Virus record (IMG/VR): IMGVR_UViG_3300049046_000039
Coordinates: 1-64,000 of that record
Reading direction: 5' to 3' (one strand)
Length of the DNA: 64,000 nucleotides
From: a virus
Each line of letters starts with the position of its first letter. Position 1 is the stretch's first letter. Shown piece by piece: positions 28,015 to 60,898 of the stretch. Under the pieces are notes generated by a model that was given only the letters and a program-made list of their open reading frames with translations, did not search any database and was not told the origin of the DNA. The translations under genes and the position numbers were made by a program.

Positions 28015-28455
28015 ATGGCTTACAAAGGATTGTTCAAGCCAATAAACCCCCACAAATACAGAGGCGACGTTAACAACATCGTATATCGATCTAGATGGGA
28101 GTCTAGGTTCATGTCGTTCTGCGACACTAATCCTGACATAGTCGAGTGGTCTAGCGAAGAGTTCTTCATTCCGTATCGCTGCAAGACAGACGGTAGAATA
28201 CATCGGTACTTTCCAGACTTTAAGGTAAAGTGGCGTAAGAAAGACGGCACGACTGTAATTCAGGTCGTAGAGATAAAGCCACACCATCAGACAATTCCTC
28301 CGAGCAAGCCTCCTAGAATGAGTAAGCGTTACCTCAACGAGGCTATGACTTACGCTAAGAATAAGTCTAAGTGGGAGTATGCTCGAGAGTGGTGCGCTAA
28401 TAGAAACTACCAGTTTCTGATACTAACCGAAAAGAGTCTAGGCCTTCGCTTTTAA
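28015..28455 (+). CDS. gp4: Head completion nuclease gp4
   Basis: MAYKG.FKP.NP.KY.GD...IVYRSRWE...WSSEE..IPY...HRYFPDF...EIKP. Confidence 0.92.
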   Translation: MAYKGLFKPINPHKYRGDVNNIVYRSRWESRFMSFCDTNPDIVEWSSEEFFIPYRCKTDGRIHRYFPDFKVKWRKKDGTTVIQVVEIKPHHQTIPPSKPPRMSKRYLNEAMTYAKNKSKWEYAREWCANRNYQFLILTEKSLGLRF

Positions 28456-33931: not shown

Positions 33932-34876
33932 TTAGTCAGCCGCGAGATTCTTGAAGAAGTCGAGGCCGTCGTCATCGTCAGAACCAGTGTTCCAAGGAAG
34001 ATCGTCGTCAGAGCTCGAAGAAGGAAGAGCTGTAGCTTCCATAGAAGGAGCTACGTCATCCTCGTCCTCGATAGTTCTACGAGAGTTAGCCGCTGCACGC
34101 TGATGAGCGGCAGTGTTCTGATCACCCAGGCCTAGAACCATCTCAAGCTTACGCTTAAGTTCGTCATAGCTCTTGAACTGGTCAGGAGCGATAACTGCCT
34201 CGAGGCTGTGGCAAGACTTCCAGATAGCTTCGAGAGCGTCGTCGTCACCGGCGATCGCACTTGGCTCGTCGAACTCAGACTTATCGTAGTTACGATAGCC
34301 TTCGACCTGACGAATCTTAAGCTTGAAGTCCGCACCTTCCCAGAGGTCGAACGGGTTCATCGGCGTTTCATCTTCAAACTCAGGGTTCATCTTCTCGTTG
34401 AGCTTATTGAAGATCTTCTTACCGTACTTGTACTTGAAGACCTTACCCTCGTTCTCGGGATTAGCCGAGTCCTTAATGACGAGAATGTTAGATATGAAGT
34501 GGAGGCGGCGCTTCTGGTTACGAGCCTGCTTACGTTCAGGAGAGTTATCGTCCTGAGAAGCGTTCCAGAGCTTGCCGTTGAATTGGGCGACAGGGTCTTC
34601 CTGTCCGATAGAGGTCAGACTCTTCTCGATGTACCACTTACCGGTCGGGCCTTGGAAGCCATGGTCCCAGTAGCGTACGTAAGGGGCAGATTCGCCCGGA
34701 GGAGCTGGAAGGAATCGAATAACAGCGTAACCATTACCAGCCTTATCGACGGTGGGTGCCCAGAAGCTCTCGTCCTTGGAGCGTTCATTACCCTTGGTTA
34801 GCTTTTCGAGATCGGCTGCGAGAGAAGCAGCGCTAGACTTACGGTTCTTTTTTAGATCAGCAAAACTTGATGCCAT
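33932..34876 (-). CDS. gp32: Single-stranded DNA-binding protein gp32
   Basis: DKAGNGYAVIRFLP, HGFQGP.GKWYIE, GADFKLKIRQVEGYRNYDKSEF, acidic tail. Confidence 0.97.
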   Translation of the reverse strand: MASSFADLKKNRKSSAASLAADLEKLTKGNERSKDESFWAPTVDKAGNGYAVIRFLPAPPGESAPYVRYWDHGFQGPTGKWYIEKSLTSIGQEDPVAQFNGKLWNASQDDNSPERKQARNQKRRLHFISNILVIKDSANPENEGKVFKYKYGKKIFNKLNEKMNPEFEDETPMNPFDLWEGADFKLKIRQVEGYRNYDKSEFDEPSAIAGDDDALEAIWKSCHSLEAVIAPDQFKSYDELKRKLEMVLGLGDQNTAAHQRAAANSRRTIEDEDDVAPSMEATALPSSSSDDDLPWNTGSDDDDGLDFFKNLAAD

Positions 34877-34996
34877 TGTATTTTCCTGTATGATTTGTAT
34901 GTTGTTGTATATGATTTGTATAGCATGTCACTTCACCATAATGTAAATGCAGCAAGAGTTTGCTCCCTCGTGGGCCAGCCTTATCTTGCTGCATTG

Positions 34997-35027
34997 TATT
35001 TATATCACAGTAATGCAAGAATGTCAA
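34997..35027 (-). promoter_or_regulatory. Overlapping sigma70-like and late promoter for gp32
   Basis: TTGACA-N17-TATAAATA. Confidence 0.75.
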
Positions 35028-36397
35028 CCATTTTTTGCATTATTTCTCACTTGCTCAAACGTGACTTGATTTTGAAGAGCTCCGTTTCTGAAGCGAGTCT
35101 TCAATAGAGAAGGACCGACTGGAGCTCCAGTCTCTAACTTGATTGTTCTATACTCGTCACCTACTTTAATAAGGTCGAGCATTCCGCGCTTAGACTTCTT
35201 GCCCGGGTCGGTAATCGGGTCCTTATATACGTCTCTCCATTCGCCGTCGACGCAGATCGCCGAGCACTTCATTGCAAACTTCAGAGTATCACGATTGACC
35301 TGCTGAAGCAGGGCGCCACCTTGACCAAAGGTAACATTGTCTGCACTATAGTTAGCCATCTCGAGAGAGTACAGAATAGACCTGATGCTAGAGTGGTCGA
35401 TTCCGTCGCCTTGGATGACTCTTACATTATTGAGGACTCTAAACCCTTTATCATTGACAGTGTGACCGAAGTACTTGTCAAGGATTTGAACGCACTTGGT
35501 AACGACCGCAGCCGGGTCGCCCGAGTCGGGACGGACTACCAAAGTAGCCCCGCTCTTAAGCACCTGGTCCTTAAGGATGGTGCCCCACATCTTGCACGCT
35601 TCGAAGATACTGTAGCTGTCGCTAACACATGCGACCAAGCCACCTGGTTTTGCGTGCTTCTGTAAGATGTTGCTGTAGGCTCTAGCCTCGTTCTCTCGAC
35701 CCCAGCTAGTGATGGTAGAGTGCTCTGAAGCAGGAATGCTGAAGCCTACGATGTCTTTAGTATTGTAGTACTTTCTCGCGAAGAGAAGAGATTCGACTGT
35801 GTCGGTTCCCATAAAGTTGATGAGGTGAGCCAGGCCGCCGATGCCGGCAGACTCTAGACTCGAAACACCTCGAGCGCCGAAGTCGTGAAGCTTGAAGTCG
35901 ATTAGAGAAGGATCGCCGGTTCTCTCGAGAGCGTTGAGGATGATCTTCTTGCTATAGTAGCTGTTAGTGGCTACGGTGGTAGGATACCAGATAGCTCTGA
36001 GCAGCGCTGTCTCGAGAAAAGATACTAACCACCAGCACTTCGGGTCGGTGTTCCAGATGTCTACGAGAACATTGCTGGTTGGGAGAATAGTTCCCTCGTC
36101 TACACCCCGGATGTTGACTGGCAGGAATCCGTCGTGTTCATAGACGATGTACTCCCAGCCTTCGCGATAGAAGGGAAGTCCGTGTGCTGTAATGACTGCT
36201 TCGGCTTCGTCGATCATTTCCATTGTGACCTGGTGTGACAGATACTCCTTGAGGAACATCTGAAGTCCGAAGTATACGGTATCGTCGTACTTACCGCCGC
36301 GCGACTCAATGTAAGAGTAGACGTACTCCGTCTTGTCGGGATACTGATTCCACTGACTGTACTTGTACGAGTCGCTGTTAAGAATGATGTTTTGCAT
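35024..36397 (-). CDS. nadV: Nicotinamide phosphoribosyltransferase
   Basis: DSYKYS, WYPTTVAT, KLHDFGARG, GTDT, SEHSTITSW, VRPDSGDP, QGDG, KDPITDPGKKSK.G. Confidence 0.95.
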   Translation of the reverse strand: MQNIILNSDSYKYSQWNQYPDKTEYVYSYIESRGGKYDDTVYFGLQMFLKEYLSHQVTMEMIDEAEAVITAHGLPFYREGWEYIVYEHDGFLPVNIRGVDEGTILPTSNVLVDIWNTDPKCWWLVSFLETALLRAIWYPTTVATNSYYSKKIILNALERTGDPSLIDFKLHDFGARGVSSLESAGIGGLAHLINFMGTDTVESLLFARKYYNTKDIVGFSIPASEHSTITSWGRENEARAYSNILQKHAKPGGLVACVSDSYSIFEACKMWGTILKDQVLKSGATLVVRPDSGDPAAVVTKCVQILDKYFGHTVNDKGFRVLNNVRVIQGDGIDHSSIRSILYSLEMANYSADNVTFGQGGALLQQVNRDTLKFAMKCSAICVDGEWRDVYKDPITDPGKKSKRGMLDLIKVGDEYRTIKLETGAPVGPSLLKTRFRNGALQNQVTFEQVRNNAKNG

Positions 36398-36440
36398 TGT
36401 AAAACTCCTTTACAAGATGTAGCTAAGCGTCTATCGCTTA
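36395..36440 (-). promoter_or_regulatory. Two-hairpin cis-regulatory RNA motif before nadV
   Basis: TAAGCG-ATAGA-CGCTTA ... TTGTAAA-GGAGT-TTTACAA(TG). Confidence 0.7.
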
Positions 36441-37496
36441 ACCTTTAATAGCTGGGATGAAGTGTTGAATGATGTCGAAGTGATCGTCGAACAGAAAGTC
36501 TCGCTTGATCTGCGAGATGGGGAACCACTTAGCCTTCTCGGCGTCGTCACTTCCTCTCACTCTCGGCAAGTTCCACTCACCGTCACTCAGACGGATGAAA
36601 CCAGCGAATGTTACAGACCTACCTAGAAGCGATCGACCTGGAGCAGCGAAGTGCTGAACTCTGTCGAGAGAACCACGAAGAACCTTATCTGGAACGTCGA
36701 TCTTGGTCTCTTCTCGAAGCTCTCGGAATATGCCGTCGACAGGATCGCGGTCTCTGTTAGCGTCGAAGTATCCACCAGGAAGAGCCCACAGACCCTTACC
36801 AGGAATCGACCTGCGCCTGATAAGAAGAACGTGTCCGGCCTGAACTACTACAGCGTCGCAGGTAACTCCTACGATGGGATACTCGTAGACTTCCTTCTTC
36901 TTTATGTAGTTGTCGATGAACTTCTTCTCTTCGACGATAGAGTCGTAGGTGTCCGCATCGAACTCGTCGAGGAACTCCATTACGGCTCCTGGAACGACGC
37001 CAGCGATAAAGCCGCGGTGCATGTTTGGATTGAAGTACATCTCGCGAATCTTAGTCGCGTCGAGGATGTCAGTGTGAGTGGTGTTATGGCGAGCCCACTG
37101 AGGAAACATGTTGAGGTAGCGACTGGTGTCGCCGTCTTTGGAGTATCCTATTAGGACGATCTCGCTGTCTTCTTTACAGTAGTTGGAGACGATAGACTGA
37201 ACTCGTTCTATCCACGCGTTGTCGTCGTAGATAGTGTCGATGTTAGGCTCGATCGTGACTCTGATTAGCTCACTGTTCTCTTCTTGCTTGCGCAAGTCCG
37301 CGATCGAGTACATTATCATGCACCGACGCTCTTCAAACGTAAACGGATTCTTGTGAGTTCTTGGTTGGTCTGCCGAACCGACTATGACCAGAACGCGATC
37401 TGCGATCTTAGAAGCTTCTACAATGGTCTTGAGGTGCGCATTATGTAGTGGCTGAAAGCGGCCAATGTACACCGCTAGCTTGTACTTTTTACTCAT
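36438..37496 (-). CDS. nadM: Bifunctional NMN adenylyltransferase / Nudix hydrolase
   Basis: IGRFQPLHNAH, KNPFTFEER; Nudix box WALPGG...RELREET; GSDDAEKAKW. Confidence 0.95.
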   Translation of the reverse strand: MSKKYKLAVYIGRFQPLHNAHLKTIVEASKIADRVLVIVGSADQPRTHKNPFTFEERRCMIMYSIADLRKQEENSELIRVTIEPNIDTIYDDNAWIERVQSIVSNYCKEDSEIVLIGYSKDGDTSRYLNMFPQWARHNTTHTDILDATKIREMYFNPNMHRGFIAGVVPGAVMEFLDEFDADTYDSIVEEKKFIDNYIKKKEVYEYPIVGVTCDAVVVQAGHVLLIRRRSIPGKGLWALPGGYFDANRDRDPVDGIFRELREETKIDVPDKVLRGSLDRVQHFAAPGRSLLGRSVTFAGFIRLSDGEWNLPRVRGSDDAEKAKWFPISQIKRDFLFDDHFDIIQHFIPAIKG

Positions 37497-37543
37497 ACAG
37501 CAAAACTCCTTTGCTTATCTTAAGGGCAAGTCTTTCTCGCCCT
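37494..37543 (-). promoter_or_regulatory. Two-hairpin cis-regulatory RNA motif before nadM-nudix
   Basis: AGGGCGAG-AAAGA-CTTGCCCT ... AGCAAA-GGAGT-TTTGCT; promoter TTGACA-N17-TATAGT at 37552-37580. Confidence 0.7.
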
Positions 37544-37560
37544 GTTACATTACTATATAT

Positions 37561-38148
37561 CTAATCACCATAAATGTCAATAACTATGTCGCGTAACTTT
37601 TTTGCGTCATATTGCATGAATGGATGATACTTACGTATCTTAAGAGCTACCTCCTGCCAGACTGGATCGAAGTCCATCTTGCGATTCCAGTAGTTGTAGC
37701 AACCGCTAAGGTGAACTAGAATTACTAAGGTTTCAAGACTGATCGACTGACGTAAGTATTCGCGGAGAAGGGGTGGATGCCTTCCGTCTCCAGCCCTAAA
37801 CATCTCGTCGAAGGACTGATAGGTCTCACTGAGCTTATTGACTTCCTCCTTGAACGTATAAGAAAGAGATTGGTTCCGTTTGGCCCAACTTCGATATACA
37901 GTCTCGGCGTTGTCGTTAGTCGTAAGTTCTCCGACCCATACTTTAGGATCGACAAGAAGGTTTGCAAGCATGAAGCCGAAGGGGTCTCTCTTCTTTGCCA
38001 GCTTCTCAAAATGGTATCTGTCGCGACGGGTATCAAATGACTTGGCACTGGCGGAAACTTTCCCTGCATACTTGTGGTAGTCATATGATTCTTTCGTTAG
38101 ATGATTCTTGAGTGCTAGGTAGGTCTTATAAACGTCGAATGGCTTCAT
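37561..38148 (-). CDS. gp59: Helicase loader gp59
   Basis: FDVYKTYLALKNH.T...YDY.KY.GK...F..R.DRY.FEKL; HPPLL..YL...ISLETL. Confidence 0.88.
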   Translation of the reverse strand: MKPFDVYKTYLALKNHLTKESYDYHKYAGKVSASAKSFDTRRDRYHFEKLAKKRDPFGFMLANLLVDPKVWVGELTTNDNAETVYRSWAKRNQSLSYTFKEEVNKLSETYQSFDEMFRAGDGRHPPLLREYLRQSISLETLVILVHLSGCYNYWNRKMDFDPVWQEVALKIRKYHPFMQYDAKKLRDIVIDIYGD

Positions 38149-38589: not shown

Positions 38590-38827
38590 GCCTCATTATA
38601 AACCAAGTTAGCATGAAAGTAAAGGAAAAACCGTACATGAACTTACCAAATAGCAGAGGTGCGTACATGGTAGATAGCGTGGTAGTAACTAGAAGAACGA
38701 CTAAAGTCAGTGTGTAGAGATCGAATCTCTTGTAAGGTGAAGCGGTCGATAGAAATATCGTGATTGCCGCGACCATCGCGCAAATGTAGCCTAGTATGCT
38801 ACTGATCAATATTACGAAATACAACAT
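38549..38827 (-). CDS. Small membrane protein
   Basis: Three hydrophobic segments. Confidence 0.55.
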   Translation of the reverse strand: MLYFVILISSILGYICAMVAAITIFLSTASPYKRFDLYTLTLVVLLVTTTLSTMYAPLLFGKFMYGFSFTFMLTWFIMRHDRLINGKIEDVK

Positions 38828-39033
38828 TATCTAGTTAGACTATCTTTCGCTTTCTTCGGGTCGGCATCCATCATCTTAATAACGTACTCACATTGCCTAG
38901 TGTATTCGATTAGGATTAGTAGATCCTCACCGCTAACAGTTACGTTCTTCTGCTTTGCGGGCGTTTTAAGAACAGCCAGCTCAAGATCGTCTATCAACGC
39001 TTCCATGAGCCCGTGCTTACTAAGATGTGCCAT
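38827..39033 (-). CDS. Hypothetical protein
   Basis: AAGGAG RBS. Confidence 0.6.
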   Translation of the reverse strand: MAHLSKHGLMEALIDDLELAVLKTPAKQKNVTVSGEDLLILIEYTRQCEYVIKMMDADPKKAKDSLTR

Positions 39034-39246
39034 AGGGTACTCCTTGTTTGTACCCTATATTTAGGCCGAAGATAGTCTTAAACGCCCGCAAAAGTTAAGA
39101 TTGGCTAACTACAGGCCCCGCTGTGATGTAAGATTCGATTGTAGTTGCAATGGTAATGAGGTCGTTTATGTCTGTATAGTTGTTGGTGGAGGCGACGAAA
39201 CGAATGGCTTCGTCGATACAGTACATTCTTAGTTCTCTGTCTGACA

Positions 39247-39528
39247 TTACGTAGTGTATCCCTGATTAGCTAACTCGTAGCCATACATCATCATGCGGCA
39301 CTGAAGAGCGAAGTCTCGAACCTTACGATTAGTATCTAGCTTGTAAGCAGTTATAACTTCGTTAGACTGTAGCTCGTCAGTGGCTAGGCTGGCACAGACG
39401 AGAGCTCGCTGTGCTAACTCAGTGTCGGTAATATCCTGATCGTCATTAGGAACGATCAGTTGTTGCTGAGCATACAGCGCGGCCGGAACGCACACTAAGG
39501 CTGCAGCAGCTAAAAGCAGCTTCTTCAT
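39247..39528 (-). CDS. Secreted hypothetical protein
   Basis: Signal peptide MKKLLLAAAALV. Confidence 0.65.
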   Translation of the reverse strand: MKKLLLAAAALVCVPAALYAQQQLIVPNDDQDITDTELAQRALVCASLATDELQSNEVITAYKLDTNRKVRDFALQCRMMMYGYELANQGYTT

Positions 39529-39546
39529 ACAAATTTTCCTTGAAAA

Positions 39547-39874
39547 GTGGTGGGATTCTGTTGCTAGGTTCCCACCGGACCCCAGGACTCACTGCTTAGG
39601 CAGCGAGCGCAAGGACATTGTTGTCGTTTGCGGTTATTTTGTGTGGGCCTTAGCGTGGACCCAAACGATCTTCTCAGTCTAGCCTTCAGCGACCATCGAT
39701 CCTAGTTCGGCCCCATCAGAAGCAGTGGTTGGAAGTCTCTTCATACCAACTTTCATTAAGATCGTCTATAGCCAACCTTAAGACCGTCACTGCTTCTGGT
39801 GGAGCCGCCGGGTACTGCCCCCGGGTCTGATCTCCTATCGTTCAACTTCTGGCATATCTCTATGCCGCGAAGAT
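39547..39874 (-). ncRNA. ssrA: Two-piece (circularly permuted) tmRNA, alphaproteobacterial type; ends approximate
   Basis: T-arm and CGGCTCC-A-CCA (39797) precede the 5' GGGGCCG (39714); G3:U70 pair; tag ORF ANDNNVLALAA* at 39596-39631; promoter TTGACA-N17-TATAAATA. Confidence 0.92.
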
Positions 39875-39905
39875 AGAGTATTTATAACATAGCTTGACTA
39901 AAATG

Positions 39906-45349: not shown

Positions 45350-46015
45350 TTATTGCGCAGAGATAATTTTATTTTCTTCGAGCATGTCGTTGATCTTGTC
45401 GATGTAGTCTTCTTTTTTCTTTACGAAGACTTGAGGATCTTCATTGTCTACGCCAATGATCACTACGATCTGAGGAATTTGAACTCCAGTAATTTCCTCT
45501 ACCATGAGAGCGTACAGAGTACACTGGAGGAAGTAGTTTAGAATGTCTTCTTCGTTCTTAATGTACTTAGAAGTCTTAAAGTCTACAATAGACTTAGCGT
45601 CGTCCCATAGCGCGAGCATGTCAGCTCGTCCGGCTATCTTCATAGAGTCGGACCACAGACCTATCTCGAGTCCGTAAACAGCTCTCACTCTTTGAAGTAG
45701 AACTTTACGAATAGACTCGGCCATCATTAGGTTGTTGGGCATCTGGCCCCTAGAGTACTGAGGGTTGTTGAGAACCATCTGCTCTAGTATGTTGTGAACT
45801 GCAGTTCCGCGTCTTGAAGCTTGAACTGAGACTCTCTTTGCAGTCTCTTCGCCTACTCTCTCGATCCAGTCGTCTAGCCACTGATGGTCGCTAAACTTAG
45901 AGAGAAACGTGGTGACGCTCTGATACTTGTCACCCTTCGGTGTAGTATAGAATCTTCCGTTTGACGTATCTTCGGAATATATCTTAGGTAAGTCGATTAG
46001 TTTTAGATTAAACAT
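45350..46015 (-). CDS. PD-(D/E)xK (Cas4/RecB-like) exonuclease
   Basis: RFY.TP.G..Y.SVTT; RGTAVH; AGRAD; VDFKTS; YFLQ...YA. Confidence 0.88.
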   Translation of the reverse strand: MFNLKLIDLPKIYSEDTSNGRFYTTPKGDKYQSVTTFLSKFSDHQWLDDWIERVGEETAKRVSVQASRRGTAVHNILEQMVLNNPQYSRGQMPNNLMMAESIRKVLLQRVRAVYGLEIGLWSDSMKIAGRADMLALWDDAKSIVDFKTSKYIKNEEDILNYFLQCTLYALMVEEITGVQIPQIVVIIGVDNEDPQVFVKKKEDYIDKINDMLEENKIISAQ

Positions 46016-46076
46016 GATGTTCTTCTATTGTGGCTACAGCGCATTATACACTGTAGCCACAGAAATGTCAACTAAT

Positions 46077-53432: not shown

Positions 53433-53506
53433 TGGTGCTTTCTAACAGAATCGAACTGTTGATCCCGGGTTACAAAGCCGGTGTTATACCACTTAACTAA
53501 GAAAGC
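53433..53506 (-). tRNA. tRNA-Thr(UGU)
   Basis: Full cloverleaf, anticodon loop TT-TGT-AA, encoded CCA; late promoter TATAAATA at 53515-53522. Confidence 0.9.
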
Positions 53507-57336: not shown

Positions 57337-57413
57337 TGGTGCGCGTGACGGGACTCGAACCCGTGACGTCATGATTTTAGAGATCACCGCTCTTCCAACT
57401 GAGCTACACGCAC
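57337..57413 (-). tRNA. Amber suppressor tRNA (anticodon CUA)
   Basis: GTGCGTG-TA-GCTC..GAGC-G-GTGAT-CT[CTA]AA-ATCAT-GACGTC-ACGGG-TTCGAGT-CCCGT-CACGCGC-A-CCA. Confidence 0.9.
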
Positions 57414-57887: not shown

Positions 57888-57984
57888 CAGGCTTCAGATT
57901 TAGGTGGGAATCGAACCCACACAGATCGATTAGAAGTCGATTGCTCTACCTTTGAGCTACTGAAAGGTTTGCTGTAAGAAGCCT
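57888..57984 (-). ncRNA. CAGCAA-stem RNA containing the D, anticodon (UCU, Arg) and T arms of a tRNA
   Basis: AGGCTTC-TTACAGCAAAC...GAAGCCT-G; promoter TTGACA-N17-TATAAT at 57994-58022. Confidence 0.8.
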
Positions 57985-60824: not shown

Positions 60825-60898
60825 TGGAGCGGATAGCGAGACTCGAACTCGCCTCATCTGGTTGGAAGCCAGGTGCTTTACCTCTAAGCTATACCCGC
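60825..60898 (-). tRNA. tRNA-Gly(UCC)
   Basis: Full cloverleaf GCGGGTA...CT-TCC-AA...TATCCGC-T-CCA. Confidence 0.92.

Follow-up and report, generated by a model that had tools for sequence, protein, structure and literature searches.

How does a phage set the expression of the genes with which it rebuilds nicotinamide adenine dinucleotide (NAD+)? The question is raised by a stretch of 64,000 nucleotides of viral DNA (IMG/VR record IMGVR_UViG_3300049046_000039, positions 1 to 64,000), here called the window, in which two adjoining NAD-salvage genes, nadM-Nudix (hereafter nadM) and nadV, are each preceded by a short leader made of two hairpins. The window is the initial 64 kb of a 115.8-kb record, whose completeness is estimated at ~64%, and is part of a T4-like phage, with homologues of gp59 and gp32 on either side of the region. 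NadV (Nampt) and NadM-Nudix (Nmnat) make up NARP2, a phage route that restores NAD+ after an NAD-depleting defence; the route consumes phosphoribosyl pyrophosphate (PRPP), overproduces NAD+, and is thought to be costly owing to this draw on PRPP (bioRxiv 10.1101/2024.02.11.579819). In the sources searched, nothing is reported on how NARP2 expression is set, and literature searches yielded no description of the leader.

An original prediction, made from the letters of the window, had proposed that the two leaders form a covarying RNA motif, possibly a translational operator, and had named NadM-Nudix, a factor responsive to NAD or ADP-ribose, or a directly bound ligand as candidate readers. Here we describe the leader as a sense-strand, cis-acting RNA structure belonging to a conserved family, a conclusion that is strongly supported. 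The leader probably controls the output of a known anti-defence pathway. Our preferred reading, to which we give a probability of about one half, is that the two leaders represent one conserved cis-acting mRNA element which controls translation of the NARP2 genes through a trans-acting reader, our leading guess for which is an enzyme encoded in the same cassette.

Structure and conservation of the two leaders

The hairpins and the genes that they precede are as follows.

37523-37543, minus strand: nadM leader, hairpin 1; 8-bp stem AGGGCGAG/CUUGCCCU, loop AAAGA (37535-37531), closing pair G-C; -12.4 kcal/mol, z -4.1
37499-37515, minus strand: nadM leader, hairpin 2; 6-bp A/U-rich stem AGCAAA/UUUGCU, loop GGAGU, with GGAG at 37509-37506; -4.8 kcal/mol
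36438-37496, minus strand: nadM-Nudix, 352 amino acids (aa); nicotinamide mononucleotide (NMN) adenylyltransferase and Nudix ADP-ribose pyrophosphatase; PF01467 (cytidylyltransferase-like) and PF00293 (NUDIX)
36421-36443, minus strand: nadV leader, hairpin 1; core UAAGCG/CGCUUA (36440-36424), 9 bp when extended, loop AUAGA (36434-36430); -5.2 kcal/mol
36397-36415, minus strand: nadV leader, hairpin 2; 7-bp stem UUGUAAA/UUUACAA, loop GGAGU, with GGAG at 36408-36405; -3.4 kcal/mol
35024-36397, minus strand: nadV, 457 aa; nicotinamide phosphoribosyltransferase (Nampt); PF04095 and PF18127 (NAPRTase and NAMPT_N domains)

The interval named in the original prediction, 36395-37543, covers both leaders and the entire nadM gene. 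In the nadM leader the hairpins are joined by the linker UAAGAUA, and two nucleotides (GU) lie between the hairpin-2 stem and the AUG at 37496. In the nadV leader the linker is GCUACAUC, the UAA of the nadM stop codon (36440-36438) is part of the 5' arm of hairpin 1, and the final A of the hairpin-2 stem doubles as the A of the AUG, the 3' side reading UUUACAAUG. Hairpin 1 is stable and hairpin 2 weak in both copies, and the minimum free energy (MFE) and centroid folds consist of precisely these two hairpins (z -3.0 for nadM and -2.6 for nadV). The anatomy first proposed for the leaders is borne out throughout: the stems of the two copies have no sequence in common yet pair, the loops are conserved (G-AAAGA-C in nadM and G-AUAGA-C in nadV for hairpin 1, GGAGU in both for hairpin 2), and the distance from the last base of loop 1 to the first G of the Shine-Dalgarno (SD) sequence GGAG is 21 nt in each. 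The likeness of the two leaders exceeds chance.

To see how far this design extends, relatives were collected as phage contigs encoding kin of NadM-Nudix (40-53% identity) and of NadV. Most of them carry the same arrangement before both genes, with variable stems around a fixed loop GAUAGAC and then an SD hairpin, and the presence of the motif in homologous phage operons, on which the earlier proposal depended, is thus confirmed. A covariance model, R1, was trained on 39 leaders from metagenomic relatives. Searched against both strands of 477 kb of phage loci and the window, R1 returned 80 matches, every one on the gene strand, as were all 26 matches in a third set of loci. The window leaders score well in the 477-kb search (nadM leader 37493-37546, 51.5 bits, E 2.5e-6; nadV leader 36392-36445, 44.3 bits, E 5.5e-5), and they show what defines the R1 family: a hairpin 1 with a covarying stem and the loop G-ANAGA-C, a hairpin 2 that holds GGA(G) of the SD sequence in its loop and extends with its 3' arm to the start codon, a loop-1-to-SD spacing of ~19-27 nt and a sense-strand position directly 5' of an NAD-salvage gene. 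Within loop 1 (n=80), A1, A3 and A5 are present in 80/80 leaders, G4 in 79/80 and U2 in 74/80; hairpin 1 closes with G-C in 73 rows and with A-U in 2, and the linker is A/U-rich with no sequence conservation. Overlap of the nadV leader with the nadM stop codon is found in the relatives L003, L008, L009 and L014 as well as in the window.

Covariation is pervasive. Compensatory changes occur in 14 of 14 base pairs, and in the phage set 87.0% of cells are paired, against 52.9% after shuffling and 28-46% with slid partners; in the bacterial set described below it is equally strong (89.7% against 55.8% shuffled). RNAalifold, applied to a MAFFT alignment that had not been fitted to the model, recovered hairpin 1 independently, with 6 of its 7 pairs compensated. 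A negative correlation between stem length and linker length was set aside because it arises in part from the subtraction used to calculate it. Covariation, strand specificity and conservation across phages and bacteria together strongly support the proposal of a covarying, gene-specific RNA motif.

The original prediction had left to an Rfam scan whether the element is already catalogued. No described family was recovered: Rfam 15 gave no gathering-level match in the leaders, and at E values up to 10 it returned only three unrelated chance matches of 12.6-14.8 bits, with NAD+-I, NAD+-II and guanidine-II not matched. The leader is apparently an uncatalogued RNA element. Several other identities were considered and rejected. 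An intrinsic terminator or attenuator is ruled out, the terminator scan listing neither hairpin and the tails (UUAAGAUA and GCUACAUC) having no U tract. Kissing between the two loops is ruled out because they are not complementary, as read off the sequence. A pseudoknot between loop 1 and downstream sequence was likewise discarded: 4-mer complementarity was seen in 31/78, against 23.8 +/- 3.9 after shuffling, at no consistent position and with no excess of 5-mers, and it is absent from both window copies.

Occurrence across genomes and genes

That the motif stands before no other gene of this phage, as originally noted, is borne out for the whole 115.8-kb record, in which R1 matches only these two sites. 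When hairpin loops containing GGAG were scanned for directly, a GGAGU pentaloop immediately before a start codon turned up only at these two positions. Two looser SD hairpins were seen, one at ~39034-39060 on the minus strand (GGGUAC-aaacaagga-GUACCC, before gene 38827-39033) and one at ~28085-28110 on the plus strand (GAUCUAGA-UGGGAG-UCUAGGUU, before gene 28111-28455); neither has a hairpin 1 or an R1 match.

Of the phages in culture, two have the leader on both nadM and nadV, namely Synechococcus phage B23 and roseophage DSS3_MAL1; phage Moby retains hairpin 2 only, and in phiRSL1 a hairpin with an AGAGA loop lies over the ribosome-binding site. The jumbo enterobacterial phages K64-1, BF, CBB, fHe-Yen9-04 and KP13-7 (L210, L217, L286, L287, L288) show a parallel two-hairpin layout on nadM; all but KP13-7, whose nadV is unconfirmed, have it on nadV too. 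In this variant hairpin 1 has a C-G closing pair and a loop with GUA at its end (e.g. GAUGUA), hairpin 2 is near-invariant (CUAAGGGAGUCUUAG), and the gene between nadM and nadV has no leader. Other variants of loop 1 are GGAGA (L025, L030, L052) and AGAGA (L228).

The leader is not confined to phages. Run on 80 bacterial and archaeal NadM-Nudix loci (469 kb), R1 gave 62 matches, 61 of them on the gene strand, immediately ahead of nadM or of the gene that follows it (nadV). Leader-bearing bacteria include Pseudoalteromonas, Cellvibrio, Thalassolituus, Neptuniibacter, Paraburkholderia, Burkholderia, Xanthomonas, Budvicia and Thiothrix, and position 2 of loop 1 varies freely among them (U, A, C, G). 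Whole-genome R1 scans of five such bacteria gave matches in three, and in two of these three the NAD-gene leaders were top-scoring. A sample of 151 genomes from one order showed the leader in 6 of the 7 that encode NadM-Nudix together with NadV (a number of the hairpins being recognised by eye below the R1 reporting threshold), in 0 of 6 with NadM-Nudix only and in 0 of 3 with NadV only. These counts come from gene-anchored loci, whole-genome scans being too insensitive, with only 37 candidates scored per genome. The pattern seems to tie the leader to one nadM-nadV cassette lineage in that order.

Which genes carry the leader can also be asked of those phage R1 matches that fall outside the expected nadM and nadV leader positions. 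Of these, 38/41 directly precede nadM, nadV or a member of a phrog_33851-like family; the other genes behind such out-of-position matches are a PnuC-like transporter, one small open reading frame (ORF) that could not be placed and, in two cases, phrog_12218.

L228:2741-3442: PnuC-like NMN/nicotinamide riboside transporter, PF04973; its leader is an AGAGA-loop variant and a weaker match
L230:2058-2435 and L058:4014-4385: phrog_12218 family, 108-109 aa, no assigned function; weaker or variant leader match
L040:2281-2652, L015:2631-3008 and L035:6484-6837: phrog_33851-like family, ~120 aa, often leader-bearing and adjoining nadM or nadV

The leader is nearly confined to nadM, nadV and a few other genes, and it therefore appears to mark almost only a small NAD regulon, consisting of nadM, nadV, the two small families and, from one weaker match, the PnuC-like transporter. 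Judged by these leaders, the phrog_33851-like and phrog_12218 families are likely members of the regulon. The former shares a conserved motif, W-x-I-x-GEDPNCDFGGHHYQP, and has the leader in ~10 of 56 loci (L219-L285). Its AlphaFold model is confident (predicted local distance difference test score, pLDDT, 92), with no PDB match at E <= 0.001, no Pfam family and no lead from the protein atlas; the family was not found in the 115.8-kb record of the window.

Some matches were rejected. Weak R1 matches before purine-nucleoside-phosphorylase-like and MurE-like genes lack one hairpin and are taken as chance. A 36-bit match in a genome without NadM and NadV (G083) is a false positive, a hairpin of the repetitive extragenic palindromic (REP) type beside a REP-associated transposase-like gene. 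There, at positions 1501-1555 and 2915-2967 of L194 (minus strand), GGGG-AUAGA-CCCC and GGGG-ACAGA-CCCC, each followed by AAUUAAAAA, precede two copies of the transposase-like gene (MPRRAR...) and reach up to 36 bits; such REP-like hairpins form a false-positive class of R1.

Other features of the window concern the phage as a whole. A permuted transfer-messenger RNA (tmRNA) gene of alphaproteobacterial type lies at 39505-39889 on the minus strand (Rfam alpha_tmRNA, 130.8 bits; ARAGORN tag ANDNNVLALAA) and hints at an alphaproteobacterial host. Phage tRNA genes are found at 57337-57413 (minus), 53433-53506, 60825-60898 and 57896-57966 (minus), the last from Rfam only and not from ARAGORN. One tRNA of the window, labelled tRNA-Pyl by ARAGORN, has the anticodon CUA and would read the amber stop codon. 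At ~46016-46060 on the minus strand, 5' of the ORF 45350-46015 and near its start, a perfect 10-bp hairpin (GUGGCUACAG...CUGUAGCCAC) has TATAAT in its loop and could be a promoter embedded in a stem-loop.

Transcript context, proposed mode of action and rival explanations

NadM-Nudix of the window has all residues that are invariant in 14 aligned relatives, those of the Nudix box among them, and relatives of nadV are annotated as nicotinamide phosphoribosyltransferase in many phage records. Upstream of nadM lies a candidate promoter:

37552-37580, minus strand: sigma-70-type promoter-like site TTGACA-17 nt-TATAGT, 11/12 consensus matches

It is the sole strong promoter-like site within 34800-37800. 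Since it stops 8 nt ahead of hairpin 1 of the nadM leader, the nadM-nadV transcript would begin a few bases 5' of this hairpin, which would then stand at the 5' end of the mRNA. The nadV leader has no space for a promoter of its own, and because the nadM stop codon lies inside its hairpin 1, this second copy would be part of a bicistronic mRNA.

From this arrangement the leader would be expected to act at translation initiation, because the SD sequence and the start codon are located at hairpin 2, and because the nadV copy stands between two cistrons and shares bases with the nadM stop codon. In the mechanism that we favour, hairpin 1 would be a sequence-specific docking site for a trans-acting reader. 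Once bound, the reader would reach or stabilise hairpin 2 and so bar the 30S subunit from the ribosome-binding site, which would hold down the production of enzymes that use up PRPP and ATP. Restraint would make sense for a pathway that draws on PRPP and overproduces NAD+ (bioRxiv 10.1101/2024.02.11.579819). The reader may be a cassette protein, NadM-Nudix or NadV, whose binding to RNA would depend on nucleotide ligands and would thereby provide feedback by NAD status. A cassette-encoded enzyme is our leading guess because the leader accompanies the cassette and is found in hosts that differ widely. Such an origin is plausible since regulators of NAD metabolism have repeatedly arisen from NAD enzymes, as the known regulators NadR and NrtR did (PMC2330246). 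The position of the nadM stop inside hairpin 1 of the nadV leader further suggests translational coupling: ribosomes ending at this stop would melt the hairpin, making nadV translation dependent on that of nadM.

Several points weigh against this mechanism. A comparison of 37 leader-bearing with 11 leader-less NadM-Nudix proteins revealed no motif-specific basic patch; K321 and K323 are weakly enriched, and there is one specific position, Q133. KVP40, RB16, 44RR2.8t and CcrColossus encode NadM-Nudix and lack the leader, and with many such phages NadM evidently does not need it. Shared ancestry confounds the co-occurrence of leader and cassette in the 151 genomes, and this pattern does not identify the reader. 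The narrow spacing between loop 1 and the SD sequence in the family (19-29 nt, median 22, standard deviation 2) is possibly in part a product of hit selection. Finally, we infer the direction of control, repression or activation, and a weak hairpin 2 with the SD sequence in its loop could be equally apt to present that sequence to the ribosome.

A related, more tentative possibility is that the leader is a defence-responsive sensor, which would keep the costly NARP2 enzymes low until NAD+ is being destroyed, whereupon the reader would leave hairpin 1 and translation would be released. The reader might then be the RNA itself, or NadM-Nudix, through its Nudix pocket (ADP-ribose) or its NMNAT pocket (NMN, ATP or NAD+). 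If the RNA were to act as a riboswitch, both hairpins, or hairpin 1 alone, would bind NAD+, NMN, ADP-ribose, nicotinamide or PRPP and alter access to the SD sequence. The tie to NAD genes, the PnuC-like transporter among them, would suit this explanation, as would the range of hosts, from cyanobacteria to proteobacteria and on chromosomes as well as in phages, which is that of a factor-independent sensor; guanidine-II offers a precedent of two small hairpins with conserved loops. Yet conservation beyond the SD sequence is limited to the five bases of loop 1 and the pair that closes it, and does not extend to the linker. The two loops are not complementary to each other, and neither a pseudoknot nor internal loops or junctions were found. 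Nor was any switching element found in the leaders: there is no alternative pairing that could serve as an expression platform, and the two-hairpin fold is both MFE and centroid in the window copies. We consider a riboswitch doubtful and lean towards a protein rather than a metabolite as reader, because the specific information is confined to one pentaloop and its closing pair, because no switching helix or pseudoknot was found, and because loop 1 differs among lineages in which the enzymes and metabolites are the same.

A protein reader need not be dedicated to the pathway, and the leader need not have a dedicated reader at all. Hairpin 1 could be a 5'-terminal or intercistronic stabiliser or a processing signal, with hairpin 2 tuning the rate of translation by presenting the SD sequence or mildly masking it. 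In the window, hairpin 1 would open the predicted transcript, and in relatives it follows promoters of sigma-70-like or TATAAATA type; these positions fit such a constitutive role, as do the A/U-rich, enhancer-like linkers, the strong SD sequences and the retention of hairpin 2 only in some phages (Moby). This role is nevertheless rather unlikely, for it leaves unexplained both a near-invariant loop across phages and three classes of proteobacteria and the confinement to a handful of NAD-related genes, with only two copies in the 115.8-kb record. A universal host protein, such as ribosomal protein S1, RNase E or a CsrA-like binder of GGA loops, is an improbable reader on similar grounds, as a general factor would not be confined to NAD genes. 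Hairpin 2 does resemble CsrA/RsmE sites, with GGA in a loop over the SD sequence, GGAGA variants place GGA in both loops, and the hosts in which the leader works are very different; the main-type loop 1 (ANAGA), however, has no GGA, and CsrA is missing in many host groups, including cyanobacteria and many alphaproteobacteria. Least credible is a DNA operator for an NrtR- or NadR-like transcription factor, or a chance or duplicated sequence. Operons of nadM and nadV are NrtR targets in some bacteria (PMC2330246), and in one sampled genome a divergent Nudix-like gene stands beside the cassette. But strand asymmetry and covariation contradict this explanation: all matches but one across the R1 searches are on the sense strand, and arms that vary yet pair around a conserved, asymmetric centre are the opposite of a palindrome read by a protein. 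The NrtR operator is a 21-bp palindrome with the core GT-N7-AC and that of NadR is TGTTTA-N6-TAAACA (PMC2330246); neither core occurs in the window leaders. Duplication is contradicted by the stems of the two window copies, which share no sequence.

Significance and comparison with known systems

The pathway behind the leader is already known, as anti-defence and as salvage; a leader RNA on the NARP2 genes is apparently uncatalogued. A strongly covarying element of ~55 nt common to phages and proteobacteria offers a concrete and easily testable control point of NAD salvage, which would be a new translational operator read by an enzyme or else a new class of NAD-related riboswitch. We know of no described NAD-sensing RNA in proteobacteria. 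Should the leader be a defence-responsive sensor, it would constitute a switch of RNA, enzyme and metabolite linking phage counter-defence and bacterial salvage to the products of NADase immunity. Experiments are made feasible by cultured carriers, namely Synechococcus phage B23, roseophage DSS3_MAL1, Pseudoalteromonas luteoviolacea and Budvicia aquatica.

Known systems resemble the NAD leader in different respects. NrtR and NadR, both descended from NAD enzymes, control nadM-nadV, pnuC and related genes in response to NAD-related ligands (PMC2330246); their targets are DNA palindromes and their effect is on transcription, in contrast to a sense-strand RNA at the ribosome-binding site. CsrA/RsmE sites present GGA in a short hairpin loop covering the SD sequence, with a second site ~20 nt upstream. 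In the main type the likeness to them is limited to hairpin 2, whose loop contains GGA in the window, and loop 1 has none; the GGAGA variants have GGA in both loops. The leader serves a narrow, pathway-specific set of genes.

Among riboswitches, guanidine-II (mini-ykkC) shares the economy of the NAD leader, with only two short tandem hairpins, variable stems, conserved loops and a place near the ribosome-binding site. Its loops are both ACGR and kiss each other, unlike those of the NAD leader (ANAGA and GGAGU, neither of them ACGR), which differ from and do not complement one another, and the Rfam comparison gave no match. NAD+-I (nadA motif) and NAD+-II (pnuC motif) are also cis-regulatory leaders on genes of NAD biosynthesis or transport, and NAD+-II also acts on the ribosome-binding site. 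They match the NAD leader in neither sequence nor structure, have another architecture and occur in other taxa than the proteobacteria and phages concerned here, and the NAD leader has no internal-loop pocket; it is a functional analogue of these riboswitches and not a relative.

In its mode of working, the NAD leader would be most like the autogenous translational operators that are read by enzymes, such as Escherichia coli thrS, read by threonyl-tRNA synthetase (ThrRS), and gene 43 of phages T4 and RB69, read by DNA polymerase. In these too, the SD sequence on the mRNA of a metabolic or replication enzyme is covered or closely preceded by a small hairpin whose loop is sequence-specific. Their stems covary around a fixed loop, and they act at 30S binding, as the NAD leader is presumed to do. 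The loop of the NAD leader is unrelated to theirs, and the element differs from them in serving a small regulon, in occurring in both phages and bacteria, and in holding the SD sequence in the loop of its second hairpin.

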